A model generated the notes under the pieces. The model did no database searches. It was not told the origin of the DNA and saw only the letters and a list, made by a program, of their open reading frames with translations. A stretch of 58,850 bases of DNA, filler included, from Porpidia crustulata (Eukaryota): NCBI GenBank assembly GCA_964255105.1. It is 3 parts of 3 records of this genome, joined end to end, with 100 filler letters (N's around TTAATTAATTAA, not from the genome) between each part and the next. Parts side by side here need not be neighbours in the genome. Positions count along the whole stretch, not along the records: positions 19,676 to 39,216 come from CAXUWE010000140.1; 2 more parts are not named here. One strand, written 5' to 3'. Every line of letters begins with the position of its first letter. Positions within the stretch are counted from its first letter, which is position 1. Below, piece after piece: positions 8,506 through 46,353 of this stretch. A program made the position numbers and the translations under genes.

Positions 8506-11500
8506 TCACTTCAACGGACTCTCATGATTATCACTTTCCCTCCCAATTCGCCTACCTACCGGGGTTCCAGCGCCACTGTCTGGTCCTCGCATCGGTGGTG
8601 GCGTTTCTCTTCCGTTACTCATATCGGTGCTTCTGCCGTCACGGTTCCTCACAATGCCGTTCTCGTCCGGTGGCCTGAAGTTCAATCTTCTTCCTTCCCT
8701 GTAGACGTCCTCCAGAATTTGTTCCAATACTCCTGCATCCTTGTACTCCTTATATTTTCTCCATAGCTGTAATGCAGTAAGTGCGTCTTCGATACTATCA
8801 TGACCTTCTGGTTGCTGCTGGATCTCTTCCTTCAGAATAAACCATGCTAGGAAGGCAAGAGATAGTCGACGTTTCCGAGAAGCAATGAAAAACAAATCTG
8901 CGGTGTCAATGATCTGAGACTTGGGGACGTGAATGTTGGCAACACGCAGATCCTTTGGTAATCCATGTCCAACAAATATGCAGCCGAGATTCAGGAGTAG
9001 CCACAATTTCTTGTAGGCGACCTTTAAGGGGACTAGTGGGTGGTGAGAGGTCCTAGGATCAAGATCACCCTCTCGTAGCCCAGAGTATTGGGTGTTGTAA
9101 TCCACAATCGGTTCATATATCGGTATGTAGTCATTGACGAACGGGACGCCTTCATAAGGACCAGGGTCTCCCCTGAGCACTGATACTCGGGCCAAGCCCA
9201 TCCGCGTCGGTCGGATGACCTCGCGGTCGCCATCGGCTTTGATTTCGATCTCCTCCTGACGCAAATTGACGAATTCTCCATCAATAGCAACATGGGAACC
9301 AGCCCGTGGCTCGTCCGTCTCTGGATCCAGCGGTAGATTTCGTGGATCGTGGACAGAGCTATCGTGGAATTAGTATAGAGTCAACATATTCGAAAAATCG
9401 TACGTACTTCATCGACCATCTATCGAAGAGACATGAAATGTCTAGGCGGTTTTTCCAAGTATTATCCACCGCATGCCTTGCACTTTGAATCTGATAAGCA
9501 ATGATTACAGGGGTTTTCCAATTAGGAAAGAAGTGAAGTGGACGGTCGGCATCATCAACCTTTCTGACCAGGAAGTCATTCATTAGATGCCATTGACCAC
9601 GGTCTTGGTGCTCCTGTTTAGAGATGGCAACTAGTAGAATCAGCCAATCGAGATCGAGCCCTGGAGTATATAGTGCGTACTGACCGTTGATCAAGGAAAC
9701 GAGGTGAGATTTCTGGTTCTCTTTGCTATTGATTTCTGCAACTACACCTACAAGGTCATAAATGGTGATGGCGGAATGATGCTGAGTCCTTCGCAGGTTA
9801 CGAAGGCTTTCGCCCTCCAAGCAGCTAAATTTTCCGCCATCAAGGATAATTCCAATTTGCTCCGGGAGCCAACCAGGGATACCCCAGAGCTGCCTACTGT
9901 CTGGGCTTTTATCTAGACAAGCATTGAGCATCAATACTGGTGCAACGTTGTGCACTGTAGTCCGCGTTGCCAGTTCTTGATATCGCCGACACTTATTGCA
10001 CCAAGCACGAATTTGAGTGGCGTACTCAAGACTTCTCTTGAGGACTTCGGAGAACGTTGGGACCGCATTTCGGAGTCGAGAATTTTGGTTCTTTGTTTCG
10101 TCAATTCTATATACCGCTGAAGCCGAGTGAGACCTACCAGACTGGGGTAGCTCAAATCAGTGACATGAGATGGGCTCGCACGTACGGTCTCGCTATAACA
10201 ATGGAGACAGCGTAGAGTAGACATTGCGCTTGTGACTAATACCTGCAGTAACTTCTCAATTACTGACGGTCATAACAGGGCTGCAACACTTACTTGATCT
10301 AATCTCGAATCGTCTGGATAGATTCTCCTTGAGTCAGATGAAATCTGTTTTAGAACGAATCGATTGGCAGTCTGTACCCTGTAGTCTAAATTGTTTTGAG
10401 GTGTTTTTTCTTCCAGGATCTGCAAGCCAGCAGCTGCCAATTTCATTAGCTGGACTGTTTTTTTTCTATCTGTAATTGCATACCATCCGGGATGCCACCA
10501 AGGCTCTTGTAGAGGTTGGTAGCTTGACAGCTCTGACCGGCGGCCTTCTCAACCATGTCGAATAGAAAGCCCATTTCGCAAAGGAGACATAGGTCAAAAA
10601 GACACCCGCTCGCAACATGATTCAGGGCGAAGTTCCGAATAAGCGGAGTAAATTTGAGCAATTGTAGTAAGGGATTGAGGTATGAGTTAGTGATATGCGT
10701 CTCTAGTCCAGAATACTGCGTTTTGTTATAATAGCTAGTCCATACTTATCAGTTGAACTATCGGACTGCAGATAATCTAAAACTTACTGGAAGTCAAAAT
10801 CCTGTACGCCGAATTTACTATACTTAATTTCGACGTTTCTATACTCTATAGGAACGTCCGCGTTTGTACTACCAGCTAAAGAAGCGTTAGCAAAAGCTTC
10901 AACAGCATCACTGATGCGACGCCCGTTGACATTTGACTTTGTTTGACCGATGCCTGGTTCGCGACTTCTCTCGCTAAGGAATTTTGGCGGTGCAATGGCA
11001 GTCCCGTCCTTGTCCAAAACTTTGGTCCTATCGGATTGATTTCGAAGAATTTTTCGCGGATTAGGTGCACGGTAGCCAATGCTATTCGGCACCATACTTT
11101 TCAAAACATCTGGATCAGTTTTGGAGGCTATATGGCCTACTTCGAAAACATGGTCGCTAGGCCAAGCAGACAATAATTTTTCGTGATAGTAGGGCATACC
11201 AACTGTACTGAATGGTCTACGTTCGCACGCTTAGTTAGTCACCTTCATTTTATGAAGGTAGTCAAGCTTACAGATCTGAATCGAACCCCATGAAAGTTAC
11301 AGGTCGAGCATCATCTGCAAACTCGGTCGGATTTGGATTTTCAGCATATCTCATCTTCTCACGAGAGCCACCCCATAAGCGAATGTTGTTATCCTGATCT
11401 AACATTGCCCACACTGATCCTGAAGGTGCCAGTATCAAGGTCCGTATGAAAGCTACGTCGGCTTGATGGAGATTGACGGTGTCTGGATTCATCAGATCTA

Positions 11501-17853: not shown

Positions 17854-19555
17854 ATGAAACAGTGCCTCCTCGGCTTGTCACGACGTATTCAGCTTTCAAC
17901 GACCCCGACTACCCAATCCAGATCGCCTGCAGCTTCCTATGATAACTGTAGATGCCAATCAGCTTTGAGAAGTCGGCTTTATGCTACTGTATCCGCCGGC
18001 GAGCTCCAGTTTGGCCAGCCCGTCCATGAAACCCATCCACATCTACTTAAAGCTGGCGAACGTGAGTAATGATACGCCCTCAAGAGAGATTTGCTAACGT
18101 TTGTTGCAAAGTCACACAGGGTATAACAGCTCTTGAGTACGCCCAGCGCCGCTCAGCACTTGCCGCCAAGCTTCCCAAGGATGCTGTTGCCGTCATCGCT
18201 GCCTCTCCTGTCAAATACCGATCCGGCGCCGTGTTTTATGACTTTCATCAAGATTCCAATTTCTTCTATCTCACAGGTATGGAACCTTACAACTAATCGC
18301 GTCAAGTTGCTGACACAGGGCAGGTTTCAACGAACCAGAAGCAGTCGCGATAATAGGTGGGTTGTCAACAAATGCATCAACGCTTCCAGAAGGGCTTACG
18401 GTAATCAGGGAAGACTGCGGGCGGTCATGACCACACATTTCACCTTTTCTTAAGACCTAAAGACTCTAAAGTAGAGCAATGGGAAGGCGCAAGATCTGGC
18501 CTGCAGGCGGCGCTAGATGTGTTCAATGCGGACGAGGTAACTGGAAACTCTATCAACATATGCCCGGTGGCTGAGACTACTCGCAGACAGGCGACATTAA
18601 CGATGCCCAAACCCTCCTGTCACCGATTGTAGCGGCATCGCACGAAGTCTATACGGACCTTGCCTCAAAACCACCAACAGGATCGGCCTTCTCCCGCTTC
18701 TTTTCCGGTCCCTCCACGAAATCCGATGGCTTTGCCAAGATCCTCAAATCCAGTGATGTCAAACCCCTAAAACCCATCATGAACGACCTCCGACTCTTCA
18801 AAAGCCCCGCCGAGATCGCCAACATGCGCAAAGCGGGCCAGGTCTCCGGCAGAGTCTTCACCGCCGCCATGAAACAAAAATGGACCCACGAAAATGACCT
18901 AGCAGCCTTCTTCGACTACAACTTCCGCACCCACGGCTGTGAAACATCCGCCTACATCCCCGTGGTCGCCGGCGGCCGAGCCGCGCGCATGATCCACTAC
19001 GTCCGCAACGACAACATCCTCCGCCCACACGAACTCGTCCTCGTCGACGCCGGCGGCCAATACGGCAACTACATCACCGACATCACCCGCACCTTTCCCA
19101 CCACCGCCCGGTTCACCCCGCCCCAACGCGACCTCTACGCCGCCATTCTCGCCACCCAGCGCGCCTGCGTCTCCCTCTGCCGCGCCTCCGCCTCCACCAC
19201 CCTCGACAACCTGCACGCCGTCGCCGAAGCCTCCCTCAAAGACCAACTTACCCAGCTTGGCTTCGACACCGCCGGCGACGCCATGGAGCGCCTGTTCCCG
19301 CACCACCTGAGCCACTACATCGGCCTCGACGTGCACGACGTGCCCGGCACTAGCCGCCAGCTGCCGTTGCGCGACGGCATGTGCGTCACGGTGGAGCCGG
19401 GCGTGTATGTGCCGGACGACGAGAGGTTCCCCGAAGCTTTTAGGGGGATGGGCGTCAGGATCGAGGATAGCGTGTGCGTGCGCGAGGAGCATCCGTTTGT
19501 GCTGACGACGGAGGCGGTCAAGGAGATTGTTGATATTGAGGCGTTGAGGGATTGA
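17854..19555 (+). CDS. ICP55: Mitochondrial intermediate-cleaving peptidase 55 (Xaa-Pro aminopeptidase, M24B), multi-exon
   Basis: Arg/Ser-rich presequence; FGQPVHETHPHLL.AGE; FHQDSNFFYLTG; VDAGG, YITDITRT, HYIGLDVHD, TVEPGVY, RIED. Confidence 0.93.
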
Positions 19556-19675: not shown

Positions 19676-21806
19676 GGGGAAAGAGGGGGTGATTTCATCA
19701 ATACCGTCCAGCGCAATGACGATCGTTTTGGCGCTCGACTTGCACGATGCTCACCGTGTTGTGCTCAGCAACGCTACTGGCTTATTGAGATGGGTTTCGG
19801 ATGGTGGGAGGCGGAGATTAATCCAAAAGCCCCGAGGGAGTGGTTGCTGATGATGCCGAAGAGGAACTAAATACTGAAAGTTTGCGAGCCCAGTAACGAG
19901 CGATGCTCATCGACGCGAGACGTTCGGACTGATATGTTGCGACTATCGACGCTGCGTCTGTCCAGTTCGGCACGCTGGACTGGAGAAGGTGCTGGAGGGT
20001 TTCGACTGCACGAAAAGATGATGCATGTCAAAAAAGGAGACATTCGGACATCATCACTTTGAACGAGGTAGAGCTTCGCTTGCGTCGAGGTGCTCAAAAA
20101 GTGAAGCACACACAAAGGAGTCTGCCTTGGCTGTTGGCGTGGATGTGAGGAATTGCGATTTCTGGTTCTCGAGGGTTACCCTAGGGCGCCTCGCAGCACG
20201 AGAACCAGTCTCGTTCTGCATAGACTTGCGATAGAACCGCCGACTCAAGTGACACACGTCGAAGCGGGTCTCTACGCCTCTAGGACAGTGGAATTAGGTG
20301 TACGAGTTGTGCCGTGAGCAGCCTTGTGTGCAAAACGGGAATGCATAGCATTTGCGAAAATGGCCGGGAGCGGTATCCGGGAGCTTTGATATTCGAAATC
20401 TGCCGCTTATTGAGACTGCTAGTATTTATTCTTTCGTGCGAGCGAACGAGAGGTCTGGAACGATTGTCGAGATTTTACCTCTTTGCCATCGTTAGCTTTG
20501 TTCGGTCGAGATTGCTACTACACGTAACACAATTGTGCCAGAGAGACATCTCAAAATAGATCGGAGGTACGTGACGTTCGTAACGACAAAGGTACAGCCC
20601 TGGCTTGGAGTCAGTGATCCATTCTTTGGGAATGGTCGGTAATCTGAATACCCCTAAGTGATGAATACTCAAGGCGTCTATTCTCTCGTTTCTCGCAAGC
20701 GACAGAGTATGTTCTGGATTCTAATACTGGCAGACAATGGAACGAGCTCACCTGTCAGAATCGCGAATGGCGTACGTGACAGCTCTTCCATAGCGCTTAG
20801 GTGACGCTGTATAACCTGAAAGTAGGTTTAGGGCCTGGGTAGTCCCTTCGGTAGGTACATAGGGCGGTCGTAATACTGTCTGGCAATAGACTCGATCAAA
20901 GTGTTTAATGTTGAGAGTCAAAGGAGGCGGACCCGACGATACTGGCCACAAGACAGGACGCAGTGTTCTACCAATGATGTAGCGGGATACGCAGCAACTA
21001 TCACTAGTGGCGAACTTGGGTCTCTGCAATCTCGTAGTGTATGAAATCTCAAAGGGGGTTAGGTAAATCTTTGGGAATAAGCCAGTCCGGCAGATGATAC
21101 TCGGCTTTGCCGTCAAGTTTCGACGAGACCCAATCGATGCCATAATCCATTTTCGGGACAGTGAGCCGAGGGTAGCAAACTGTCTGCAGGAACACTCACG
21201 TCCCGTATTCCAGAGGTACTATCGCTGACCGATTAGAGACCTTTGGTACAAGAGTTCGCGCAGAAGACTGAGATCACCTGTCAACGATAGGGCGCACGTT
21301 CAACGCCGGTGGAGGTGGATGATGCTTAAAGGTAGAGTTTGACAGATAGGCTGCAATGCATGGGGATCAACCCGGTCCTGTTCTGGTCTCTGTGCATATG
21401 GGGCCCTCAAGGCACAATCCAAGGCAGTCGATACGTCCTGCAAAGCAACTCTTACCATGGCGCAACGTAGATCTCCGGCTATGCTTAGCCATGTAACCGA
21501 ACATGACTCGGCTCGAGCGGATGGCTTCAGTGCTAATGCCAGGTACGTAGGCTAGTTATGCCATAGTGTGTCCAGTGATGGTTAAGAAAAGCTTCCCCAC
21601 TCTAAATGATATGCCAATCACAATTTATCTGCCTGCATTCCTGATGGCTTGTTGTTTCAACATGAGTGGGGGAAGGCGCGTTAGCCATGCATAAAAACTA
21701 CAGCGCGATCGATGCACCTTTTGCCACTGATTTGTGCCTTTCCAGATGCGTCCAGATGGTGGCTTTGCATGTTTTGTGACTTCTCGATGATTTTGTATGA
21801 CCTTCG

Positions 21807-21962
21807 ATGACAGCTTCAGCGAGGCTCTTCCGGGATCGACTGCCTGATGCCGCCCGGACACCAATGCATGCAATCTGTGCGGGTCATACTCAGCGAACTT
21901 GGCTGATGACCAATGGACAGCGTTGGAGACAGCTGTGTCATGTCTCTGTATCCACCTACTAA
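21807..21962 (+). promoter_or_regulatory. Candidate uORF (51 aa; internal ATGs at 21864 and 21906) overlapping out of frame the putative upstream start codons of the BrlA-like gene
   Basis: Open frame from ATG 21807 to TAA 21960-21962; any function is inferred by analogy only. Confidence 0.3.
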
Positions 21963-22397
21963 AGGTCCTATAGCTTCCCCACACCCGCTTCTCCTCCCGC
22001 AGCCAAAACATCGGTAAGGAGGAAACCCCAGATAGCTTTTGTCGTAAAAGAATTCTCGATATCAAGGGTTCCCAACGGACGGTAGCCGTTCCCAAGTCAT
22101 CATGTCGAGTGAAACATTTGCCGCTTGCCCAATTTCACAGCATTCCTACCACACCTTGCTGCTATTGTGGCTACTCAATACCGGGGATTAGTGGGGAAAC
22201 GATCATTAAAAGGTCGATGACCATCTCCTTTCCCATAATATCCAAGGACGCCGCTCTGTAATGAGTAATTTGTAAATCTGCTCTAGGTACGAATGCCCAT
22301 GACATAGTTCCAACGCTGTACTGACTGTATGAATAGAACCCAGCCTAAGCCCCAGTTTCCAGGAGTCCCGATATTGAGTCTTTCCTGCTATTGCACC

Positions 22398-23798
22398 ATG
22401 TCTTTGACTATTGATTCCCAATTATCGTCTGCAAAATACCGGGACGCCTCGCAAGAATGTTATCCAAATGGGTACATGACCCCGCCATCATCGGCTACAT
22501 CCCGAAGACCCTCAGTGGCCATGTCGGCAGATTCTTTTGGACCGTTCTCTTCTACCTCTTTTCCAGCATCAGAGTCTAACTCTTTCTGCGAACTATTGAC
22601 CCCGACGTCTTCCTTCTCAGCTTCCTCTCACCGACGCCATTCTACAGCATATAGCGACTTCCAGCCGTGTCTCGTCGCGGACCCTTCAATAGTCGACTCA
22701 CGGCATTATATCGAAGCAAGCACTCCATCAGATTGGCCTCAATCCTCGACCACAGAGTGCTTCGTCCTCGATACGTCTTATACGTGTGCAACTTCCTCAT
22801 CATCATTTTCCAATGACCTCAGATTTGGTAGCCCAAATGAAGAAGGGCTCTTGATGACCATGCCGGGCGATCTCAGCGAAGCATCAGCGCCTTCAGTCGC
22901 CCAAGACCTTCAAGGCGGACACATCTTATCTTACAATCAAACAACCTCTTTGGCCACCGATGACATGCCAGGCTTTGATCCCATGACTACCCTCGACACA
23001 GCTTTCCTGAGCTCTGCCGCCGATTACGGCGATGATTGCATAGCACTTAAGTCCACAAACGATAACAGCTGGCCCGCCAATCTTGCATTGTCCGAAACTG
23101 TAGTTCCTTCACACATGTTCATGTTGTCGAGTCCTCCTGGATCTCCTTTGCCACATCATCTTGGTTCACCGATCAAACTCGAACAAATGAATTCAGAGCG
23201 TGCATCCTTTGACAATCTGAGCGCCTATAGCGGAGCATCACCAGGAAGTAGCCCGACAACATCTGGACGCAGGCTATTAGACATCACAGTCACACCAACG
23301 CCCAGGAACCGTGGACTTGGTCGATTTCGTAAGCTCGGTAGACTTTCGGGATGGAAATCTGGAAATAAAGCAGCCCTGCGATTTCCAGGATGCGATATAC
23401 GGAAGATCGAAAGTATCGAAACAAATCCTTGTGTACCATGCACGGTAATACTCGACAAACACATAGCCTTTAAACGACCTGAACATTTGAAACGACATCT
23501 CATAACCGAGCAACACACGAAGAACGTAGCGGCCTACGCTATGAGGATGAAACTCGAATGTCCAACACCTGTAGAAAAGCCGATCTACCCATGTTTAATT
23601 CCAAACTGCAAAAAGGGATTAGATAAATCGCCTTTCGTTGGGAGAAGGGATAATTTGACGCAGCATTACAAGAATACTCATTTCCACGATAAGCATCGGA
23701 ATGGGGGTGGCAAGAACGATTGGATTAGCGTAGAGCGAGCAGACGAGCTAGGCCTGGCATCGAAAGACCCTAGGAACGAAGCGAAATATGAAGGATGA
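22398..23798 (+). CDS. C2H2 zinc-finger transcription factor, BrlA-like (Msn2/BrlA-type recognition helices); possible upstream exon 21913/21940-22013
   Basis: Ser/Pro-rich N-terminus; fingers FKRPEHLKRH and RRDNLTQHYKNTH followed by GGGKNDWIS (cf. BrlA FKRQEHLKRH / RSDNLNAHYTKTH..GGRNRYV, from memory); CACCATG start context. Confidence 0.8.
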   Translation: MSLTIDSQLSSAKYRDASQECYPNGYMTPPSSATSRRPSVAMSADSFGPFSSTSFPASESNSFCELLTPTSSFSASSHRRHSTAYSDFQPCLVADPSIVDSRHYIEASTPSDWPQSSTTECFVLDTSYTCATSSSSFSNDLRFGSPNEEGLLMTMPGDLSEASAPSVAQDLQGGHILSYNQTTSLATDDMPGFDPMTTLDTAFLSSAADYGDDCIALKSTNDNSWPANLALSETVVPSHMFMLSSPPGSPLPHHLGSPIKLEQMNSERASFDNLSAYSGASPGSSPTTSGRRLLDITVTPTPRNRGLGRFRKLGRLSGWKSGNKAALRFPGCDIRKIESIETNPCVPCTVILDKHIAFKRPEHLKRHLITEQHTKNVAAYAMRMKLECPTPVEKPIYPCLIPNCKKGLDKSPFVGRRDNLTQHYKNTHFHDKHRNGGGKNDWISVERADELGLASKDPRNEAKYEG

Positions 23799-26692
23799 TT
23801 GACGCATGGCATGAGTAACTCGATAGGTAATGACTTTGGGAGGAAAGGGTAATGGAAAAGCTCGGTTATAATGTATCAAGATTCGGTACCTGGAATTCAT
23901 TAGTCGTATATGTGGTGCGGTTATAGCTCTATAAGTCAGCAATACACGTTAGCATTCTCAGCAATCCGCTACTACAATCCTGGACTCTTCTACATAACTA
24001 TGGCCAGCTCCTCAATTTTTCCGTAATCCCAGTAGAGAGCCCAGTCATGGTTTCAGGGCCTGATGACGCTGGCGGAACCTGCGAAATCGTTCCCTCCAGT
24101 CGGCAACTCTTTCGCAGGTTTTGCGTCGCCAGCCCCGAGGACCCGATGGGTGACGAAGGGCCTCTTGGTGGCGCTCATCTTCTGACGGGGAGCCTGCCAG
24201 AGGCTTCCATCCCTCCATTACTCCAAGCATCATGGCCGCCTACCCTTTGTCAGTCTTGGTCCAGACTAGACACGCTGAATTGCTACAGCGTTGGGGTGGA
24301 TGGCTACTTACATCGCTACCGTACTCAGTAGCTATACTAGTTGTCATTGCTCTTCTTGTAATTGGGGTTATGCGACTTGGCGTAAACTTTGGCTCTTTGA
24401 ATTGCCTATGCTTGTCAACGGTTCCGAATTTGTGTATGCAGTAGGACTGATTGTGCTTCGAAAAAGCCAGGCGATGGTCTTGTCCCTGAATCCCGATGAA
24501 AAGAGTTTCAATAGGATGTTCTGGAGGCTCAATGATGGATGGAAGCGAAATGCAGCGTCGACTCTGCTTTGGTGCTTTGTAGCGCCCAAGGAATGCTGGA
24601 GGTCCAGACGAGTTTATTATATCAATCGATTGCGGTCTTAATGTAAGTAGGAACCGGGTGCTAAGTTTGCTGTCTATTTGATTCAAGCTCTACTTTCATC
24701 AGTTTATGATCTTGTAATTGATCTTCAACATGGGTTAATACAAAGCTTCGATGGATATGCGGCACCTGAGGTTCATCTGTGATCTGCTAAAGTCAGTTAA
24801 CGCTTCGTTATCTTGCTCTTCCATCTTCTAAAGGGGCTGACTACTTGGTCCGAAAGTGAACCCACCAGTCGAGGATCAAGCGGTGTGCGCCAAGAGCTGG
24901 TATCAAGAAGTGGAGGGGACCATTTAGGAGATGCAGATCGATTTATCGAGGTTTGTGGAAGTGGTGGTGTTGTCGTCGAAGATGTTGAGTGTTGCGCAAG
25001 TAGATTCATGTTTCTGTTTTCATTCATTCTGGAACCCATTAACTAAATAATTCGAAGAACCATCAGAATCTTTAGATGACACCATCAACCCTACCTTTAA
25101 ACAGGTATTGACTCTTGATCAGCCTTCAAGTCCGATGCAAGGACAGGACGATGGGGCAGGCAAGACTGTACCAAACACAACTTGAAAAGCAATTGACGGT
25201 CTCCAAAGAAAAGCGACAGTAATAGTCTCCTTAGAGCAGCAAAACGTAAAATTAGAGACGACCAATGCTTACAGAAGGGCAATGGTAGAATCAAAGAACT
25301 TCGAATAAGATCTTGCAATTACCAGGCCTTGGATGCCAATTGCCAAACAGAGGAATGTGACAAGGAGCATAGTCAGAGGAAGCTTCGTGCCATCACTAAG
25401 CCGAAAAAACTCTCTCGCACCCATTTAAGAAAGAGCGTCCTCGGCAAGCGCGGAGGTAGCATCATAGGTGGCAAGAGGACACGAGTAATACTGGGGCTTG
25501 GTTGCCCTGATGGACGAGGAAGGCATGCCTTGACGCTCCCAAGAAGACCAGCCAAGGAGGATCCACTTTGCTACCTACCAATTGCCAGACTGAAGTCAGG
25601 ACGCTTGGATGATCGTGAAAGGTATTGGCCAGGCCATGGATAGCAATGTGCCACAGAAATAAATACAGCCATGCCGGACTGGCATGCATTTTGCGCCTGT
25701 GGCAAGTTGGTATGACTCCTCATCATAGCTGTCCCAGACGCGGCAAGAGATAGCTTGGCCAGTCTCTTACATGACTTTGATTACAGGGAAGCTGTTAGAA
25801 AATACTGGAGTTTATGTTTTGTTTCGTCTCTGAGAGGAAGGAACCTTGAAAGTGGAAAGTTAGCAGTAAATATTCTTATGGGAGCTTGCAGCAGCAAACG
25901 CGGCTAGTCGCGCCACAGGGCGACACGCAAAACCGCAAGGATGATAGTGACATTGACGTCGGCGCAATTCAATCACATCACACAAAAAGGGCGATTAAAG
26001 AGCATTGATGCAGACGAGGGGATTAGCCTGGGATACTACACGTTAAAAGAGGTTGAGAGTTCGTTGTGGCGCGCGACCTGTTTCCCGTTCCCTGACTTCA
26101 ATTCAAGCCTCACAAACATTTATTACTCGTTCTACTTCATTTAGATAGTACCTACCTTTTGCGCCAACTCCAAGCCTAATGGGGCATTCAAGATCCCCAT
26201 TTCCATAATTCCCATTCGATAGACAGCAGGTCCATGAGCACGAACATCGACACAAAGGACAAGACTAAGTACTTATTGTAAAAGAGGTGGGGAGAGAAAG
26301 TGAAGACAGGATTGGTTGATCCCTCTCTCCTTCCTAGATCTCAAAGGCCTCGCCTAAGATGAGTAGAGGAGTGGACTAGCAGATTTGTGAGCCAAAAGGC
26401 GTAGCCATATACTACAAGTAGTCAAACGGAAATGGTCGAAGAATATGGGCGACTAGGCCGATTGAAACGTTTCGAGACAGGAAAGCCCAAAAACTGGAGG
26501 TCTTCGTAGTATCCATTGTTTAACTGTACAGGTGGCTTCAGGCTAAGCTAGAGTAGTTCATTTGTAAAGTAATACCCTGATGGAGCTGACTTAAGTCAAG
26601 CGTGCCCTTGGATAATGTTCACTAAAATGCCAAAATAAGCTGCATCTATCAACAATGAGCTTATGGTGATATCGTCAATGTCACTCTTCGTT

Positions 26693-27409: not shown

Positions 27410-29883
27410 CGCTGGAAGAGACTTGGTATTATCGTCGAAGGTCAATTGTTCATGGATCAGCTACTGCAATACGAGAAGATGAGTGACAGGATGTGGTCGA
27501 GATGGAAGGGCAGAGCAGCTTTTATATCGCAGTACTGCAAGACGAGATCTAGTAGATTCTTACTACCATGGCCTAATAATGACAAAATGGAACCGTAGGG
27601 AGACGCGCCACTATACTCATGCTATGATTCCTATTACTCTTAGATCTCTTCATCTTCCAACAAGGCCATGCCACTGCCGTCAATGATTGACCGCACGACA
27701 GCCTATTGGTAGCGTACCAATGGCCGACATGGAAGTCAGAGCGATACGCAGCAGGGCCGACGTGTGTAGGTGAAAAGAAGCTTCAGTTCAAGCTCTTTTG
27801 TATCTTTACCAAGCATTGGCTACAGCACCAATGACAGGTCCCCAAGATCTGGAATCTCAAATTAAGAGCTAGTCGTGGCGCTGGACCAGGAACCAGAATC
27901 TCCACATCGTTAAGCTTCGCCGTAGAGGGCTCCTCTGGACCAGCCCATCGTCTCTAACTCCTACGTGGGAGTCGAGGACCATCACCAAATGGAGGCCAAT
28001 TGCGCGCTGAAAAATCCGCTAGCTATGTCGTAAATCAAGTCCCAGGCCGCTCAATTGGGAATCCGCTTAATTAGGGTAGGCGCTAGTACCGCTAAGATCT
28101 CCTAATTTCGCTTAGCCTGATATCTCCCCAGATAGCTTAATCTCGTTCCTGGAACATGCGAAAGCTTCAGTCAGCCACCAAAGGGCGGGGTGGAAGAGCC
28201 TCGAGTGAATCCAAGAATCGGAGACTCCGAGGGAGACTCCGAGATTGTCAAAGCCATTTGTCGAGGTTCAGTCGTGCCAATTGCCAGTGAAAGGGAGAAT
28301 GCCTATCTGCACTATCTGAATATTTGCCTCGTCCTCCGAGACTTCAGAGCGAGAGCGTCATGCAAAAAAATATGGGCACCGTGCAACTGCGTACTGCGTG
28401 AGCCGTGCCATGAGAAACTTCAATATCACGATGTGAGTACAATGATCCACATACTAGCAACAACATTTATTAGTATTATCCTTCTGGACTTGCGGTCCTC
28501 AGACTCTCCTCTGCGCTGGATCTTCCTAAGGAGGGCTAGAGAGCAAGATCTGCGGTTGTGGCTTGCGTAGGAAGAAATTTCGATTTGATAATAATGACGC
28601 GGTGGGAAGCACTAATCAACAAGGCTGGCGATTAAGGAACTCCATACTTACTCGCTGAGCCACTGGTCGAAGCCTTGGCTCTCTTTCATGGTCCTTTCGA
28701 GATTCACTAATTGATAAAACCTGTTTGGCAGGATGAGACAGTGCCTCTTAATGAATGAGTTGCTGCCGGGCAGAATCTATCATTGCACTTAGATTGGAGG
28801 GAAGAGTTTGCTGGACCGCGTGTACTGAAGAATGGCGCCGTGATGTTATATTGGACTCCTGGGATATAGAAATGCTTCGACAATGATTCAGAACAACCTC
28901 TATGTCGCTTTGTTGTTGGCACTCCTTATTGCATCGTGGCTTGCTTTCTAGGATGTGTCCTCCCCTTGCTGGTAGTTCGTTGCCAAAGATTGAATCTCGA
29001 CATTTCTAGGTTGCCGGCTGATTTCGAACAAAGCCGCAGATTAAAGTAATTGGACGGTTCAAGAAATAATAACATGTTTCCAAACTGCTGTATGAAAAAG
29101 ATCCGGCATCACGCTCCCATGTTGGGGCCATTTCTTACATCCACCAATATTGAAGCACGGAAACACGAATTGGGAGGTATCGAAGTTGTACGGTCTACCT
29201 TTCCATTCCTTATCCTCTTTCATCGCACCCGCCTATCCTCCTAACCCCCATACTCTACATCTGCAAAGGCTCCCCGAGTGGCAAAGACCCTTGATCGCTG
29301 GATCTCTCAAACTCGAGCCCCAGCTCAACGTGTAGCTTTGTAAATAAGAACATGATCAAATCTCGACCAGCGGTGTTCACGGGTAGCGCCTGAATTGACA
29401 CATAAATTGAAACATGAAGAGACCAGAAGCTCACGTTGAGACTACCGCCCACAGGTACAGCGGAACAAAGACTTATGGTTCATTCAGTGGTCGATTGTGT
29501 CTCCTTGCGAGGGTGCGAGGAAGGCACAATTTTATTGCGGCTCTCGCGATAATAGCTCCATCCCAGTAACCCAGGGTGTCCCATGTCAATCCGTCCGATT
29601 CCTTCATGGCAAGGCGTCGGAAACATTTGATGTCTTGGGAACCTCGAAAATTTTATGCCGTCAACTCGGGGGACCAATATTACTTCTTCGTCCCTTCTGT
29701 AACATCATGACAACTTAAATGGGCCATTATCCGATAACTTGCTGATGAACAAAGCAAGGGTGGAAAACTAAGGAGCTTGGTAGTCTACGTAGGACATGCC
29801 ACTGCAACCGTTGTTTCTGGTACAACAGGCCGTCGGCCCTCTACAAAGTCACGAACGTACCGACAAGGCTCTGCAGGCCTCTT

Positions 29884-30974
29884 TCATTTCTTCTTGATGA
29901 CATCTTCTCTCTTTGCCCCGACTCTTCCTAAAAAGTCCATCTTTCCTAGATAGCCCTCTTTTCCTTTTTCCGCCTTGTCTAGCTCCTCCTTCATCCCTTC
30001 TTTATCCACATACCCTGCCCAATCCAGCTTACTTTTCTCTATCGTATTCAACTTCGGACCTTTATTAAGTGCTACCGCTGCTCCTGGTACTCCATTAGGA
30101 TTTGGGTCAAACATGGAGGGCCGCTTCTTTGGACGTCTCAGCGCGGGTTTGCCACTGGAATTGGACGAGGTTTGTTGTTCTTGCCGCTGAGAAGCTTCTT
30201 GGGACTGCAGGTAAAGGCGTGCTTCATCGGAAGAAGCAGGGACTAATTTTTCTTCGGTCGTGGTTTGGCCTGCATAGACATATGTGCGTCTTATTGTGAT
30301 CGTAGGTTCGGAGTGAGAGATTGCATTGGTATTTGCGGGCTTCGAAGATGTGTTGAGATCATTCGTACCTAGAGGAAGACCGTTGGTGGTTTCGTTGGTG
30401 CTTTTTCGGCTCTGTACTACTTCTGCTGCATCCCCTGGTGGCTTTACTGTAGAAGTCGGCTTCGGCGCACTATTCATTCTTGCCCATAGCTCGTCCACGT
30501 CCACAGTCACACCTTCAGTATTGGTAGATGCTTCTTTCTTTTCATCAGTACTATGATATAAGTCAAGAGTCAGCCTTCCACATTTTGAAAGTACGCAATC
30601 GGGGGCGCAAAAATCTCGATGTGTTACTTGAATCCACTATGTATCTCCACGAATTAAGCCCCGGGAATGCGAAGTATCCCCACTTACCCACCCCTGCCGC
30701 TCCTTGTCCTGACTCTCAGACCTACTCCCCCCTCATCTGCCTCCCCATGAGCTCCATCCTCATCCGTCTTCCTATCCTCTCCCTTTTTCCTTCTCTTCTT
30801 GATCCCCTCCTTAACAATTTTCTCATCCCCAGAGTCTATCTGATCCACTGCCCTTCTCTTTTTACCCTTTGTGGCATCATGCTCACTATCTGAGGCAGAA
30901 GATATTTGGTTAGATGCATCGAAGTCGGAATCAGCGGCGGAGTCATAGTCGTCGAGATCAGGTGGCACAGACAT
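29884..30974 (-). CDS. SWC5: SWR1-complex protein Swc5 (BCNT/Bucentaur-C domain)
   Basis: Acidic N-terminus YDSAADSDF; VRTRS; intron 30551-30687; ITIRRTYVYAG; KLNTIEKSKLDWAGYVDKEG..EEL....GYL..MDFLGRV. Confidence 0.93.
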
Positions 30975-35526: not shown

Positions 35527-37700
35527 ATGCGCAAGGGTACTCATAGCTGCCTAGAATGTTAGCTGAGAGATCAATAGATTACCATCGCTTATAGACTGAC
35601 AAACTTCCAGGTAGACGAAGGAAAATTCGTTGCATTTCTCGACCAGAAGACTCTTCTACCTGCTCCGAATGTTTTGCGCGCGGGACAAAATGTCGAGAGC
35701 AGAAACAGGGAGAACCGTATCCCAGCCCAATCGAAGAAAAGGCACCCTCAAACCTGCGAGAAAGAGTAGCACGATTGGAACGTGCTGTGGAGTCGATGCA
35801 GTCCATGCTCTTCACTAATGACGGAGCGGATACAAGCACAGCTCCAGAGCGAGATGCGGCAGAGGCACTGAGCAATCTGCAGTCGGATACTATATTGAAT
35901 CGGCCTGCGTCTAGTGACCCCCCTGACATATACTCTAATTACAACGAGAGGGCTCCACTGCTTTCAATGTTTGATAATGCTGTTGTGAGTGCCTCCTTTC
36001 AGCGCTTCTCGAAGGATTCGCTCATGGTGTATTAGCTGAGCAAAGAGGCTCACCAAGCACATCAACGCCATCATGATGACCACGATGAAACGCTTACGAA
36101 CAAGAGTAAATCTATTAATACAACCAGAGCTAAAACTAACCGCACTCGTCAGGCTCTCTTAGATCTACTGCCTTCGCAAAGTGATTTGCATGCAATACTG
36201 GAGTCTACGACTGTTTGGTGGGAGTCTTGGCGGGTCTTATTTCCAGAAATATCTGTCTCTAAAGAACAAAAGACATTGAAGAATCACATCCTGTGGGCGC
36301 TTAACCAAGTCAACCCTGTGAATATTGCCCAAGGTCTGATCTGTCTGGGCCTCTGTATTAGGCAGATTCGACCTGGCTTCGTTCACGGCTCTTTTCATTT
36401 GTCTCGGTCCCCGAAGGACACAATGAACCATTATATGAGCATAATTGACCAGTTAATTATTGCGGACGATGAGTACGGAGGGTCATGCGATGGCCTAGAA
36501 TTGATTATTCTAGTCGCGAAAACTTATGTAAATCTGGGACAGCCTCGTAAAGGGTGGCTACTTATTCGTCGAGGAATTTCTCTAGCCCAGCTCGTTGGTA
36601 TTCATCCTGATCGGAGATTGATGACCGATAAGTCGGGTGCATCGATGGAAAGGCTGGAAAACGCATGGTGGTCGTTGTACATGGTAGATCGTTACATCAG
36701 CTTGCTTCTGGGGCTCCCTTATGCACTAAGCGATGGGCCAGCTGTCAAAAAAGCCAGCGATTCTTGCACAGATCCTACGAGTCAATATCAACGAAAGATT
36801 GCCATGATCGTTGGAGATGTCATCGATAGAAACCAGGAGTCTTCGGGTCCGTCATTGCCCTTAACCCTCGAAATTGATCAGAAAATGGAGGATGCAGCAA
36901 GGATTATGACGGATGATTGGTGGAGCATTGATTCAGCCCTCTCATCTCAATCCATCAGTATTGAAGAGTCATTTGGCCGGAAAGGGACACAGCTTTGGCA
37001 TTTCCAGATCAAAGCCTTCTTGCATTTGCCGTTCATGCTACAATCTGCGACAGACCGTCGATACGAATACAATCGCCATGCTTGCTTGGATGCAGCTCGC
37101 CAAATGATCCATCGGTATCATCTATTCAGGCTAGATGACAAAGGGGCATATTTCACCTGCAAAGTAATGGATTTCCAGGTTTTCAACGCAGTGGTACTCC
37201 TACTCTTAGGCCTACTCGGCTACGGAGGTACATCTACTCGAAGTGACGGAGAAGATTTGCGATTGGTCGATACTACTTTGAACATACTACGTGGCGCTTC
37301 ACTTGCTGAACCGGATGATGCGATGCTCTCGCAATCTGTCGAGGCTATCGAGACACTAGCCGCATACCATAGCGACAGTTTTGCAGTCAACGGGCAGAAG
37401 GCGGGAAGAGACCGTAAAATCATTATTCCATACTTTGGGACGATCAATATATCTCCAGGATCGAGGTTCTTGGCGGCCAAGTCCAAGGATGGCAGTGCAA
37501 AGATTGCATCAAGCGCAACCCCGTCGCTGGCTGATGGATTACAGCCGACGCCTCCAAGCGATGTATCATATTATTTGCCCGATCCAGAATTTGACTTGAA
37601 TCCCTCCTTCGGATTGCCACACATTGATATTGACTGGTCTAGTGTTGTCAATATGGATCTCGATCAAAACTGGGATTGGACCCAATTGGGAATACAGTAG
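35527..37700 (+). CDS. Zn(II)2Cys6 transcription factor with fungal TF middle-homology domain
   Basis: MRKGTHSCLE|CRRRKIRC....TCSECFARGTKC across intron 35558-35609; 504-aa last exon with G.PRKGWL..RR....AQL.G.H and WWSLY..DRYISLLLGLPY. Confidence 0.92.
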
Positions 37701-39316: not shown

Positions 39317-41314
39317 ATCCTGGCTCGGGACCTTGATATCGCAGGTTTTGCAATGGATGCAGCTATTTGCTCAAGTCAGCGCCTGTCACCCCATTCCAAA
39401 CCCCAACCGCTCTGCTCAAAATGCCAAAAAGATGGAAAAAAGAAGGCGCGGGGATGGAACGACGAGACGTACTTCTGAGCATTAATCTGGAACCGGACTC
39501 CGAGATCCTCGCCCGCATCCTCGACGTATTCGTACACGCCGGCGGGACAAAAGCGGTTCTCGACGCCCTTGTACTTGGGCCACTGGTCGCGCGCGTGCTC
39601 CTGCCACTCCCGCTGCACCTGCAAATGTACGGGCTGGTCCTCTTCGTGGTTTGTACCCGTGCGGCTTACGCTCGTCAGGATATCAAACGAGATCTTGCCG
39701 TCGGGTTTCGGATATTCGATTTTCTGGCATTGATCGGCAAGCTTGGTCGCGCCGGCGTCGGTGCCGGCGTGCTTGAGGGTCCAGGGCGTGCGGCCGCGAA
39801 GGAGGTAGGCTTCGAGGCCGGAGTAGACGATTCCGCCGTAGAGGCCGAGGGGGGAGTGGAAGGACGGGCGCATGTTGCGGACCTCCTTTAGCTCTTTCCA
39901 GATAGAGCTTTCGCGTAGGCTGTCCTCGAAGTCGTATAGGAAGACGGTGCCAGCGTCCGGGTTAGTGATAAGGGCGGAATAGGCGGCCTGAGCGGCAAGC
40001 ATGCCGCTGCGCATGGCAGTGTGCGTGCCTTTGATTTTGGGGACATTAAGGAAGCCGGCGGTGTCGCCGATTAGGGCGCCGCCAGGAAAGGCGCACTTAG
40101 GGATGGATTGAAATCCACCTTCATTGAGAGCACGGGCACCATAGGAGATACATTTTCCGCCCTCAATGACGGATTTGTAAAGAGGGTGGTGCTTGAGCTT
40201 CTGGAACTCGCCGTAGGGGGATAACCAGGGGTTAGGGTAGTCGAGGCCGACGACAAGACCGAGAGAGACGAGATTATCGCCAAAATGATAGAGCCAGCCA
40301 CCACCATAGGTCGAAGAGGGTAAGGGGTAGCCCATAGAGTGGACAACCTCGCCTTTGCGGAAATTTTCTGGTTTCACCTCCCAGACTTCTTTGAGCCCGA
40401 GGCCGTAGGTTTGGGGTTGTGAGTCCCGGCGGAGATCAAACTTCTGAATGACCTGTTTCGTAAGGCTACCGTGACAGCCTTCGGCAAAGAGCGTGACGCG
40501 GGCGTGGAACTCCATGCCTCGCTCGAAGGAGTCCTTTGGTTTTCCATTGCGTCCCACCCCTAGATCGTTTGTAGCAACGCCTTTTACTGACCCATCAGAT
40601 TTGTATACAACCTCGCTCGCGGCAAACCCAGGGTAAACTTCCACTCCAATTTCCTCTGCTCGTTCTCCCAGCCACTTGCAGAATTGATTGAGGCTGATGA
40701 TATAATTCCCATGGTTGTTCATCTGGGGTGGTGCAGGAATCGGTATCGAGCGATTCTTCGTCAAGAAACGCATCTTATCATGAGTTGCTGGTGTGGCATC
40801 CTCGAAGCGTGATGGATTTTCAGGCGAATTCCAATCGGGAAGAAGCTCGTTGACGGCCGAGGGTTCAATGACATTGCCGGAAAGTATGTGAGCACCTATT
40901 TCTCCAGCCTTCTCGAGCAATAAGACTCGAAAATCCTCATTGCCGGCTTCGTTGGCAAGCTGCTTCAGACGAATGGCAGCACTGAGACCAGCAGGACCTG
41001 AGCATAGGTAAGCGACCGGGTTGTACAGGACGATCTGGAGGAATACCTCCACCGACGATACAAACATCGACTTCATCGCTCTCGCGGTCTTGCTGCCTTG
41101 GATCGGATCTTTCCTCAACGGCATCAAGAGGCCGCAATGCTGCCCTTGAAAAGACCCTGATAGAAGTACTGAAGGCTCTCGGCCTGTACTGAAAGAGGTA
41201 ACGCCGGCGAGCTGGAGGAAAGTGTGAAAATGCTCTTGGAGCTAGTGAGGTCTGGTTGTTCAGCACGGACAGGCTTCTCCTTACCACGGGTGAGATAGAA
41301 GCTTTGGAAACCAT
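39317..41314 (-). CDS. CIR2: Electron transfer flavoprotein-ubiquinone oxidoreductase (ETF-QO/ETFDH), 3' end cut by the contig end
   Basis: Presequence; DVCIVGG|GPAGLSAAIRLKQ; AEGCHGSL; YGARALNEGG; GFLNVPKIKGTH; RFCPAGVYE; last visible exon N|CIHCKTCDIKVPSQD (4Fe-4S motif) runs into the Ns. Confidence 0.97.
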
Positions 41315-41742: not shown

Positions 41743-44700
41743 TCATGCTTCTGGTCCTTCCGCCTGCCTTGAAGTCACTTGCTCAGCCATTTCCACCGTT
41801 CCACTCGCTGATTTTGCATTTTCTCCACGAAAATCTTCGGCGATTGGACTACTCATCTTGCTTGCAGGTGGGACACTTGGAGCTGACGACGGTGATTCTG
41901 GTGCCGGAAGCTCATTCTCGGTTGCAACCTCCGTACTTGATGCAGGGAGGGTATTGCTTGCTAGCTCCTCTTTCTTAGTCGCACGAAGTGGTTCTTGTAC
42001 AGTAGGCGGGCTAGCTTCTAAGGGGGCGTTCGCTCTGGCCTCGATCTCTTTAGCCCCTTGTACTACCGGGTCTTCTATTGCTTCTGGCCCTATGCTGGAG
42101 TTAGGGACATGGGATGCCTCCGATAGTCCATCGTAACCTTCAGCTTTTGCGCCTGGTGCGTTCAAGGCCGCGTTGACAATACTGAGCAAACCGCTGTCAC
42201 CGACTTCCCATACCGTCCACGGCTCTTGTACAGCCCAGCGACCTTTCTCGGTAGGCTCTTCTGTCAGCGACACTGGTGCAGATGCAGCTGCAGGTTTCCG
42301 TCTTGCGGGTCCTCTAGCGCGCCCTTTGCGCGCATCGGCCAGAGGAGCTTTCTCTTCTTCGGGATCCTCTTCCGTCAAAGCTTTTTCTTGCGGTTTAGAT
42401 GGAGCTTGAGGTCCGAGCTGAAGCCGTTTGTCAAGATCGGATAGGAACCCTGCTTTCAGTGCGGCGATTTTGCTGCCTGCGGGCCGGGATGGTACAGCAG
42501 GCTTTAGCTTTGGCGCCGGCGGTAAAATGGTACTCCCACCATTATCGTCGGCCACTCCTCCACTCAGGGTTGATGACGCAGACGTGACTTTGGAGAGTGG
42601 AATAGGCTCTGCAGAATCACGAGAAATGGGTTTTGCTGGGCGGATCGGCACCTGGGGTTTGGGTCTTTCGGGTAGAACAGGGGCTTTCCGCAACTCAGGT
42701 GACGTAGGGGAAGACTCGGCCGAAGCTTTTGAAGGTGGAGGAATATCCGTGGGTGGCACTTGATGGGACCTCTTCGATGGTCGTGCTGGTATTGAAGGCG
42801 GAGCTTGCACACCAGACCTCGAGGAATCTGCTTGATTGTTGCTCTTGATTGGACGTGGTGGAATGCTCGGCTTCTCCACAGCTACCGCACCAGCCGTAGC
42901 AGCTTCTCGAGCTTGATCGCCAACGATCTTACCTTCATTTGGACGTCCAGATGTCCGCACTACAGCCCCAGCTATCAAGCCCTCATCTATTGGATTCTTT
43001 GGATCGTCACCTTGAGGCTCTCCCACAGTAGTCTCCAAACAAGCACTATCTGGCGAGTCTTCCCATATATCGCGACTAGGAAATCTTTGCTTTAAGCCCG
43101 GCTTCTGGTTCTCGCTGAGGAGATGTGGCTTGAAATTGGAGTTAGCTAAACGTTCCTCTCTTGGTATCAATTTGGCCTTTTCATCCTCACTGACTTCACC
43201 CTTGCGCGTGGCTTCAGTCTCGGGACTTTCAAATACCGTAGAAGGCGGCTTGGCTTGTATATTTTCATGCTCAGTGGGTTCAGGAGTGGACACTGTGGCC
43301 TGTAATTGCAGACTGTTTGGGGTGTCTTCCCATATATCTTGGCTGGGGAATCTTCTCTTCATAAGCATCTCGCGGCGCTTAAAATGTTCTGTGGCAGGAA
43401 TCGGTCGCCCCTCCTTGTCCTCTTCTTCGGGAAATAATGGCTCGTACTCTTCAACGTCCTCCAAGGGTGTATGCATGTCTTCACGCTCATCGTGAGAAGT
43501 GAACCTTGACAGCCCCGGAAGTGAGCCATGTATGCTTCCCGGTCGGCTTCCCGGCCTACTGTTGGAAGCGCTACCTGACCGGCTGCCGTTCCGGAACCCA
43601 CTCTGATATGATGGGGCTGCGTCTGAATCTATTCCAGCGTAGTAATTGCTGCCTCGTCGCTCTTGGGCGGGAGACACAGCAGGTTGCAGATATTCAGACC
43701 CTGGCTCTTTTGCAACTTCATCCGAGGCAAGGATTGGAACACCGTATCCTGTTTCGTCAATCCAGCCTCCCTCGGCTTCAGTATTACCCCCGTGCGGGCC
43801 AAGATCCTCCGTGGGAGGATTGTACCCGTTGCCACCAATTTTATCTCTACGAGTCGTGGGTGGAGGCACATGGATTTCATCATCGTCGGTCTCACTTTCC
43901 AGTGCGTGCTCGGAAGAGGGACGAGCAAATGATTGACGTTGACTTGATCTATCAAACCCCTCTTTTCCCTCAACGTCAACTGGAAAGCTTGTTTTCCGCA
44001 ACGGTGAATCAACGTGAGTCTGCGAATTATTTGAGTGCGCCTTGCCATGGTATGTAGTAGATTGCGGGGTATTGATACGTGATATATATGCTTCTGAAGC
44101 CATGTAGCCAATTTGTTCATTGGGTAGTCCAGCAACGTTTGCGGATGTTCCTATAGAAATTAGCCGATTTCTTTGATATTCTTGTCCAGTGGAAAGATTA
44201 CCAAAGCCTGCGCCCCTACTTGCAGTCTGTCTGACTATCTTGTTAAGATCGTCACTACTGAGGGCCCACTCGCCCCTTGAACCACCGATACCTGGGCCGT
44301 AGAGACCATTTTCCTCTCTTACCAATGCATCAGGATGTTTGTCATACCAATCCTTTTCGAACCGGTCCGTGTGCTGAACACCGTGCCCATGCAGCCCGTA
44401 ACTTCCAGGCGGTCCATTGAAAACCTCCTTACCGCTACGAGTGCGGTCATGATGTCTTCCAGGTTTTTGCCGACCATCATTATGAAGGCCAATGGCGGAA
44501 GGAAATGTCTGGGAGTAAGGTGAGGGTGACGGGGCTTGGACATCGCCAGCGTCAGGATACATCGGTACCCTCTGGCCGATTTCGGGTATGCCATGGTCGC
44601 TATCACCGGCCTGAGAGCCTGGGCGTTCAGTCGAAGCCGAAGACTCGGTTCGGTTGAAACTGGTTCTGGATTTCAGGGAACGAGAATAAGGGTTCTTGTC

Positions 44701-45240: not shown

Positions 45241-46353
45241 ATCGTTCAACGAGTAGTTCAGATTGTCCGTGGGCTATGCTGTTTATGTGTTAGTAATTGG
45301 CAGAATAATATGGGGTTCCCAACATATGCTTCGAAAGAGCGTGTATCTTGAGCCTGTTGTGCAGGCGTTTATTACTACGAGAATTGTAAGAAAATGTGCA
45401 ATTAGAATAACTCGATGACAATAGCATGGAATTGAAAGCATTGGTGATTTATTGCGTTATAAAAGCTGAGCTCGTCGTCGTGGTACATAGTCCGCATGAA
45501 CCAAGTAGTTCCCAACACAACATCCTGCATAACATCAATGAACAAATTAACTGCCACTCACTATTAGAAATTTCAGAATTCAATTGAGGGGAATAGTAGT
45601 AATGTTGGAAACGGTGTAGACTTCCATTCAATTATAAGACTCTCTGTATGAGCGGTGGGGGGGTGAGATCAAGGCATTTAAAGATCAACCAACTTGCAGG
45701 CACCGTGATGAGGTGCTACGCTAATGCATTTGGGGTTTAGACTACCCCGTAAACTCGGGCCTAATGCCGAAGTGGGAGATCCTAAGCAAAGCGAGAAAGT
45801 CACTATACCTGCTTGCCCATGGAAGAGCGACGTTCATGTGTACAGATGAACATTACGACCGATAGAAACCGAAGGAGGACTTTCTTCGATAACAAGATTC
45901 TCTGTTCGTTTCTTTACCTCATCATCTGTGGAGCAGTGGCGGGATACTGTGTGCTTGTGGCGTATGCACGAGATACTATTATTTTCTCCTCACGTGGATC
46001 ATCGCGCTTTGACTTGCCCGGAATTCGACGAATGAGAAGCTGCATGGGCACAATCACGGCCAGAGACGATCTTTATGCGCCGCCGCTGTAAACGCTTTTG
46101 CTCGTGGATCCTGCGTCTGCTTCTTTTGCGTATTCAAGCGCGGGACAAGACCCAAACCCATAACACCGCCGCCTTAAAACAACCACGGAAGCTGAAGTAC
46201 ACGGACAAAAATCCTAGAAATACACATGCCCCCCAACAAGTCCCACTATTCATGGTTGATCACTGAAGAAGACCTTTGCCAGACCAAACGGTGTAATATG
46301 CGGCCGTGTCGCTGCAGACAGATTGCGGCCAACAACTTTCCCCTCGCCGACTC

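Follow-up and report, generated by a model that had tools for sequence, protein, structure and literature searches.

The stretch of Porpidia crustulata DNA analysed here (58,850 nucleotides of assembly GCA_964255105.1, filler included; hereafter called the window) contains a gene that an initial annotation had described as a brlA-like developmental switch, with alpha and beta transcripts, an upstream open reading frame (uORF) and an N-terminally extended isoform. BrlA is a two-finger transcription factor that switches on spore development in Aspergillus, being needed to initiate conidiophores and activating abaA, and we compared the locus with its relatives in metagenomes and with the BrlA family. 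In the reading that we consider probable, the gene encodes a BrlA-related factor behind a conserved modular promoter, and the extension is coincidental. It would thus be a lineage-restricted two-finger C2H2 factor of a BrlA-related superfamily, translated from the ATG at 22398. The coding features are as follows.

22398–23798, plus strand: main open reading frame (ORF) of 466 amino-acid residues (P0001), a real, conserved gene by the ORF scan and the comparison with relatives

23430–23516, plus strand: finger 1, C345 and C348 with H367 and H373, helix R360-P-E-H-L-K-R366; invariant columns, aligned with finger 1 of the BrlA family

23592–23681, plus strand: finger 2, C399 and C404 with H423 and H428, helix R416-R-D-N-L-T-Q422; invariant columns, aligned to the BrlA family

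The gene and its two zinc fingers

A word-indexed search with P0001 returned 14 proteins at E values up to 0.001, namely its own duplicate, eight full-length relatives (58–70% identity), three shorter forms, a 280-residue form that matches in the finger region alone, and P0015, which is 26% identical over 99% of the length. The start methionine is common to all eight full-length relatives and corresponds in position to the main ATG; judged from these proteins, the translation start is the conserved ATG 22398.

Residues 1–338 are rich in Ser, Thr and Pro and are predicted to be disordered, with predicted local distance difference test (pLDDT) scores below 50 in an AlphaFold2 model made from a 17-row alignment. 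In the same model, residues 340–466 reach scores of 56–89, mostly above 74, in blocks of ten residues, and are predicted to form two beta-beta-alpha units. The zinc ligands C345/C348/H367/H373 and C399/C404/H423/H428 are invariant in 17 diverse family members (alignment A3), and the helices R-x-E-H-x-K-R-H and R-x-D-N-L-x-x-H, which characterise the BrlA superfamily, are present in P0001 and align to both fingers of the BrlA family. In finger 1, an additional loop separates the second Cys from the helix, as it does in the BrlA-named family.

A Pfam scan of P0001 gave no family at E values up to 10, and the gathering cut-off of zf-C2H2 (PF00096) was not reached. The BrlA-family members P0103, P0087 and P0105 score 15.8–17.4 bits against zf-C2H2, where the cut-off is 25.2; because they too fall below it, we do not count the missing match against a relation to BrlA. 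The Protein Atlas matches of P0001 and P0030 are generic C2H2 clusters, none of them named BrlA, and the top match of P0001 carries PF26176/PF26177, neither of which was seen in the Pfam scan. A fold search with the AlphaFold2 model against 48,161 chains was uninformative, with a best Z score of 3.2 and a few C2H2 chains among unrelated rows. The C2H2 recognition code relates helix residues of the R/H/R and R/N/Q types to a G-rich site. Considering this code and the helix residues, P0001 may bind a G-rich site of the AGGGG type, and the gene is a putative developmental or stress-responsive regulator.

Relation to BrlA

How close is this family to BrlA? Among 1.84 billion cluster representatives, a profile search found 73 matches at E values up to 0.001, including 33 at 1e-10 and 18 at 1e-30. 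The profile used (A1) included P0015 and therefore leans toward the clade of P0015–P0033, called A7 below, so that the clean comparisons are those made with A8, an alignment of the window family alone (nine sequences). A search started from the weak match P0083 found 24 proteins, one of which, P0103, carries the name “zinc finger protein BrlA” in its source, and a homologue search with alignment A3 found 14 proteins, none named BrlA. The homologue searches yielded two informative source names, that of P0103 and that of P0018 (cf. Caloplaca).

P0001 and P0103 are collinear over 233 residues in BLASTP (26% identity, E 7e-6). In the profile–profile comparison by hhalign, A8 matches the BrlA family (A4, 23 members) over 204 columns with a probability of 98.6% and an E value of 1.2e-15. 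This match begins about 110 residues N-terminal of finger 1 and spans the ETV.PS..F motif, both fingers, the extended finger 1 loop and the GKN.W/Y.S motif, so the similarity exceeds the fingers. At the level of these profiles, the window family is shown to be homologous to the BrlA-named family. The A7 clade aligns with A8 at 99.9% (E 2.3e-34) over 425 columns, collinear in full length, while A7 and the BrlA family align over 85 columns only (E 4.4e-22). Because of the better score and the full-length coverage, the window family is closer in alignment to A7 than to the BrlA family. The two share the N-terminal motif, the PQTV.P..TF motif, both fingers and the C-terminal EA..LGL...DPR tail. 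A7 differs in its identity of about 22–28% to the window family, in forming a separate starred clade in the tree, and in having no counterpart of the loops that the window family has inserted in both fingers. A7 is uncharacterised; NCBI lists its member P0018 as a hypothetical protein from the lichen fungus cf. Caloplaca sp.

In a mixture-model tree of 83 rows (omitting seven representatives shorter than 250 residues, the P0001 duplicate P0002, the fragments P0011–P0014, and 12 of the 25 BrlA-family proteins), the window family has a long stem and forms a starred clade that sits within a polytomy, and the BrlA clade joins A7 and P0030/P0034 at an unstarred node with a Shimodaira–Hasegawa-like approximate likelihood ratio (SH-aLRT) support of 90. 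The deep nodes of a 37-row LG+G4 tree, whose rows were chosen by hand, have supports of 70–82, and the approximately unbiased (AU) test on this tree did not reject the window family and BrlA as one clade (p 0.31). P0001 is, by these comparisons, a remote homologue within the BrlA-related superfamily, and BrlA orthology is neither shown nor excluded. The term “brlA-like” is therefore borne out at the level of the superfamily, and the weakly supported deep nodes do not extend it to orthology.

According to the accessible parts of two surveys, BrlA is confined to Eurotiomycetes, and Chaetothyriales and Endocarpon have probable members (PMC6231087, 10.1101/627414), the cut-off in the former being e-100. 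A functional BrlA of 370 residues with two C-terminal fingers is described from Beauveria bassiana in the available text of PMC6616149, and alpha and beta transcripts of BrlA from Metarhizium robertsii, outside Eurotiales, in that of PMC8779605. These two reports weaken the premise that BrlA is restricted to Eurotiales, on which the novelty of the locus had been based. In the parts of the literature that our search for brlA with lichen-forming fungi or Lecanoromycetes reached, we found no treatment of BrlA in lichen fungi.

The protein resembles Aspergillus nidulans BrlA in having two C2H2 fingers of the same helix types at the C-terminus, in the extended finger 1 loop and, through the family with the BrlA-named member, in collinear similarity N-terminal of the fingers. 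It differs in that the identity is about 26%. The 73 profile matches and the profile–profile link support the view of BrlA as part of a wider, fast-evolving family of ascomycete regulators, which the functional BrlA proteins of Beauveria and Metarhizium already imply.

The upstream region and the proposed extension

A metagenome scan with the locus gave 14 loci (L001–L014). L001–L009 and L012 are 98–100% identical upstream and were counted as one lineage, L010 and L011 are the same in sequence and were counted as a second, and the matches of L013 and L014 are confined to the finger region. The relatives used for the upstream comparison encode proteins only 58–60% identical to P0001. Four non-coding blocks within about 1.1 kb upstream are conserved in both independent lineages; they are given here with the proposed uORF and intron.

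21294–21368, unstranded: distal block, about 1.07 kb before the ATG; 84% identical to L001 and 90% to L010 over the core

21591–21665, unstranded: block with GCTTCCCCAC (21591–21600), a CCAAT box and an invariant GCATTCC (21635–21641); 75% to L011

21807–21962, plus strand: uORF of 51 codons, overlapping the ATGs 21913 and 21940; only its internal ATG 21864 is conserved

21907–22025, unstranded: block over the proposed upstream exon; 73% to L010 (130 nt) and 76% to L001 (59 nt, 21967–22025)

22014–22336, plus strand: candidate leader intron of 323 nt (GTAAGG ... CTGAC ... TAG); its donor-like and branch-like elements align in relatives

22106–22215, unstranded: proximal block inside the candidate intron; 78% to L001 over 118 nt

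In the distal block, a run of 26 nt (21320–21345) that holds CTTAAAGGT is invariant across the three lineages, and the block may serve as a distal promoter or as an enhancer. The block over the proposed exon holds a CCAAT box (21910–21914), another GCTTCCCCAC (21973–21982) and the donor-like ATCG/GTAAGG. The proximal block, likely the proximal promoter, combines an invariant GCATTCC (22140–22146), GTGGGGAAAC at 22191–22200, which is a minus-strand copy of GCTTCCCCAC with one mismatch, and the TATA-like TTAAAAGGT at 22206–22214, 184–192 nt before the ATG. Further conserved elements in the alignments are the CCAAT boxes at 21861 and 21910, TAGCTTCCCCACACCCG, TTAAAAGG at 22206, and ATCGGTAAGGAGGAA, whose counterpart in L010 is GTAATG. 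CTTAAA(A)GGT is found twice, some 1070 and some 190 nt upstream of the main ATG, and GCTTCCCCAC occurs exactly twice in the 58.8 kb of the window (21591 and 21973), both times upstream of the main ORF.

GCATTCC is invariant at two aligned places, 21635 and 22140. The latter contains the CATTCC that had been noticed at 22141, which is present and whose GCATTCC is kept in two independent relatives. We take these sites to belong to the TEA/AbaA-type CATTCY class. CATTCY is not enriched in the window, with 66 occurrences against 79 expected, and the notable feature is the invariance of two copies inside conserved blocks, not their frequency. The gene would be driven by this block-wise conserved regulatory region of about 1.1 kb, apparently built of recurring cis-elements (two GCATTCC, several CCAAT, three GTGGGGAA(G/A)C and two CTTAAA(A)GGT), and the conserved blocks are putative factor-binding sites.

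Upstream of 21294, a comparison with 5 kb of L001 found no similarity, and an Rfam scan of 20900–24100 gave no match at E values up to 1. A minus-strand ORF over the conserved blocks (21625–22011) was rejected as coding, since the lineages differ in it by indels of 41, 12, 7 and 1 nt. As a separate observation, an (ATGCAG)n hexanucleotide repeat adjoining the conserved CCAATGCA has three copies in L001 (4428–4445) and four in L004 (4431–4454), and thus its number differs at this element even between near-identical contigs of one lineage.

Does the conserved region encode an N-terminal extension? Every feature named in the initial annotation is present at its position. The G of the donor-like CG/GTAAGG is at 22014, CTGAC occupies 22321–22325 and TAG 22334–22336, the interval from the donor to the acceptor end is 323 nt, and the main ATG is at 22398. 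The donor that had been seen at 22014, ATCGGTAAGG, is conserved together with its surroundings in two independent relatives, above chance. The further GT donor sites that had been listed as alternatives, at 21543, 22258 and 22287, were all located; neither 22258 nor 22287 is kept as a donor in the alignment with the relatives.

If 22013 is joined to 22337 in the window, 55 open codons lead into the main ORF, with ATGs at 21913 and 21940, which had been proposed to yield an isoform longer by 45–54 residues. The relatives speak against such an isoform. The region of the two ATGs is deleted in L001/L004, and L010 has TTG where the window has ATG 21940, neither start codon being kept. A 1-nt deletion in L010 between the conserved core and the donor places the core in a different frame and, with the aligned acceptors, in-frame stops occur before the main ATG (15 codons in L001/L004, 7 codons in L010). 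Each AG lying up to 140 nt from the main ATG was joined in turn to the conserved donor; of these acceptors, two of the ten in the window, none of the 12 in L001/L004 and none of the four in L010 let an ATG-started frame cross the junction. The in-frame fit, open as it is in the window, is no more than chance would give.

The core of the proposed exon, GCTTCCCCAC, has a second copy about 380 nt upstream and, because it recurs there, we regard this core as a repeated cis-element rather than a coding one. The DNA of the exon is conserved together with the donor-like and branch-like elements, while its coding capacity, its start codons, and the length and peptide of the uORF are not. Because it is the DNA that is conserved, the in-frame extension looks like a coincidence in this one species, not a conserved beta isoform. 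Outside the window, where the relatives are devoid of the start codons, no beta-specific extension of the BrlA type is found; in Aspergillus, this extension has 23 residues (accessible parts of 10.1101/627414 and PMC8779605).

The uORF that had been proposed at 21807–21962 is present, with 51 residues, and does overlap the proposed starts, but neither its length nor its peptide is conserved. Its first ATG, 21807, is not conserved; the conserved ATG 21864 sits in the conserved CCAAT box 21861–21865. The ORFs from ATG 21864 comprise 32 codons in the window, 22–24 in L001/L004 and 5 in L010, and their peptides are unrelated. As for the micro-ORF known from BrlA, this conserved ATG opens ORFs in three lineages, with differing lengths and peptides. 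Between the distal block and the donor (21350–22013 in the window), the DNA is rich in ATG, with 29 copies against 9.5 expected (0 of 500 shuffles reached this number), and the same stretch has 19 against 11.8 in L010 (p 0.012), 14 against 8.6 in L004 (p 0.03) and 12 against 8.3 in L001 (p 0.13). In the 384 nt from the donor to the main ATG, the shuffle comparison showed no enrichment. Either a leader laden with uORFs or ATG-containing binding motifs could be the source of this richness, and the counts do not tell the two apart.

Alternative readings and surrounding genes

Several observations weigh against a simple promoter with a coincidental extension. The donor-like ATCGGTAAGG is conserved (GTAAGG, GTAAGG and GTAATG), and a branch-like CTGAC, CTAAC or CTTAT followed by AG is aligned in the three lineages, which fits a real leader intron. 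The ATG richness may be the sign of a leader laden with uORFs and not of promoter DNA. The transcript starts of Metarhizium BrlA, mapped by rapid amplification of cDNA 5′ ends (5′RACE) to about −1086 and −251, some 835 nt apart, are close to the spacing of the CTTAAA(A)GGT elements at −1070 and −190; both Metarhizium transcripts hold the same major ORF, and the long leader contains several non-conserved uORFs (PMC8779605, in its accessible text). These points favour a two-promoter, brlA-like gene, which we hold to be possible but rather unlikely. Such a gene would start distally at about 21330 and splice its uORF-laden leader from 22013 to 22337, and the intronic promoter at 22106–22215, with its GCATTCC and TTAAAAGGT, would give a short alpha-type mRNA; relatives would make the same 466-residue protein, and the extension would be incidental. 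The conserved splice-like elements, the two CTTAAA(A)GGT elements, the confinement of the ATG enrichment to the distal stretch, and the fact that the conserved ATG 21864 opens at least one short uORF in all three lineages are all consistent with it, and an upstream transcript start with splicing from 22013 to 22337 is a possible event on this pattern. As far as the available text of PMC8779605 goes, Metarhizium provides the precedent that best fits this reading, with two 5′RACE starts, one ORF and several leader uORFs; it differs in having experimental support, and the part of the article at hand mentions no leader intron. Several features point the other way. The usual fungal donor has G at +5, and the branch consensus is CTRAY. 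By these standards, GTAATG in L010 is without the usual G and CTTAT in L001 is off consensus. The conservation continues for 9 nt past the donor hexamer, beyond what splicing alone would explain, and the placement of the conserved ATG in a CCAAT box and of a repeated motif in the exon core is typical of untranscribed promoter DNA. We therefore retain the conserved modular promoter as the probable explanation.

The complete model of the initial annotation, in which a conserved BrlA-beta isoform has a functional extension of 45–54 residues and a regulatory micro-ORF, draws on the in-frame join from 22013 to 22337, open from ATG 21913 or 21940 in the window, and on the overlap of the uORF with these starts. 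The comparison with relatives already contradicts it, since the starts are absent from both lineages, the L010 frame is shifted, stops precede the main ATG in L001, L004 and L010, and the uORF varies in length and peptide; we regard this model as highly improbable. Equally remote, in our judgement, is a stress factor of the Msn2/SebA type, or another unrelated C2H2 protein that is BrlA-like only in its finger helices. The helices R-x-E-H-L-K-R and R-x-D-N-L-x-Q are indeed of the AGGGG-binder type, and the likeness to the STRE (stress response element)-binding Msn2/SebA factors lies in these residue types. The window family differs in resembling the BrlA family outside the fingers too, over about 110 residues N-terminal of them and in the finger 1 loop. 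A TPPSS..SRR.S motif seen by eye in the N-terminal parts of the BrlA-family proteins P0101 and P0087, outside the scored alignment, points in the same direction, as does the missing zf-C2H2 match at E 10, which is shared by BrlA-family members in that they fall below the cut-off.

In brlA proper, that of Eurotiomycetes, the alpha and beta transcription units overlap, the longer beta leader is spliced, and a regulatory micro-ORF lies close to its 5′ end. The locus is like A. nidulans brlA in that its long upstream region is conserved and contains CATTCC sites, in its upstream donor-like site and in the promoter-like block within the candidate intron; it differs in having no conserved N-terminal extension or micro-ORF peptide. 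That it is the brlA counterpart of a lichen-forming lineage or of a related ascomycete one, with a distal promoter and uORF-laden spliced leader and with an intronic proximal promoter under feedback through TEA/AbaA-type CATTCC sites, seems to us quite doubtful. If true, the two-promoter design of brlA and the BrlA–AbaA circuit would be older than Eurotiomycetes, and the locus would give a first entry point into how lichen fungi control their asexual structures. In practical terms, the locus is of modest value, as a candidate developmental regulator in a poorly studied fungal lineage with sharply conserved promoter elements, including the two invariant GCATTCC, that can be tested.

One further feature adjoins the gene.

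23799–23954, plus strand: 3′ flank, probably the 3′ untranslated region (UTR); the BLASTN alignments to L001, L004 and L011 continue beyond the stop codon to 23949–23954

About 150 nt 3′ of the stop codon can be aligned with the relatives at an identity roughly equal to that of the coding region, which suggests a constrained 3′ UTR. The neighbours 3′ of the gene are syntenic with L001, with DNA identities of 69% at 24374–24829 and 79% at 29879–30323; the latter match falls in a BCNT-domain gene (29884–30636). Elsewhere in the window, Pfam assigns genes for an RNase_T-type exonuclease (8506–9369, minus strand), an M24 metallopeptidase (18575–19555, plus strand), a fungal-specific transcription factor domain protein (36036–37700, plus strand), an ETF-ubiquinone oxidoreductase (39376–41241, minus strand) and Aim21 (41743–45273, minus strand; E 5.5e-196). 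The other genes assigned by Pfam are an ordinary ascomycete housekeeping context.

Finally, the matches at L014:4794–5342 (P0014) and L013:430–771 are degenerate copies of the finger region only, 75–82% identical to residues 353–466. In the L014 copy, the first finger cysteines are lost, KRPEHLKRH has become KRSKHLKRH, and in its upstream part the frame is AT-rich and of low complexity. Copies of this type look like duplicates decayed by C-to-T and G-to-A mutation, in a manner resembling repeat-induced point mutation (RIP).

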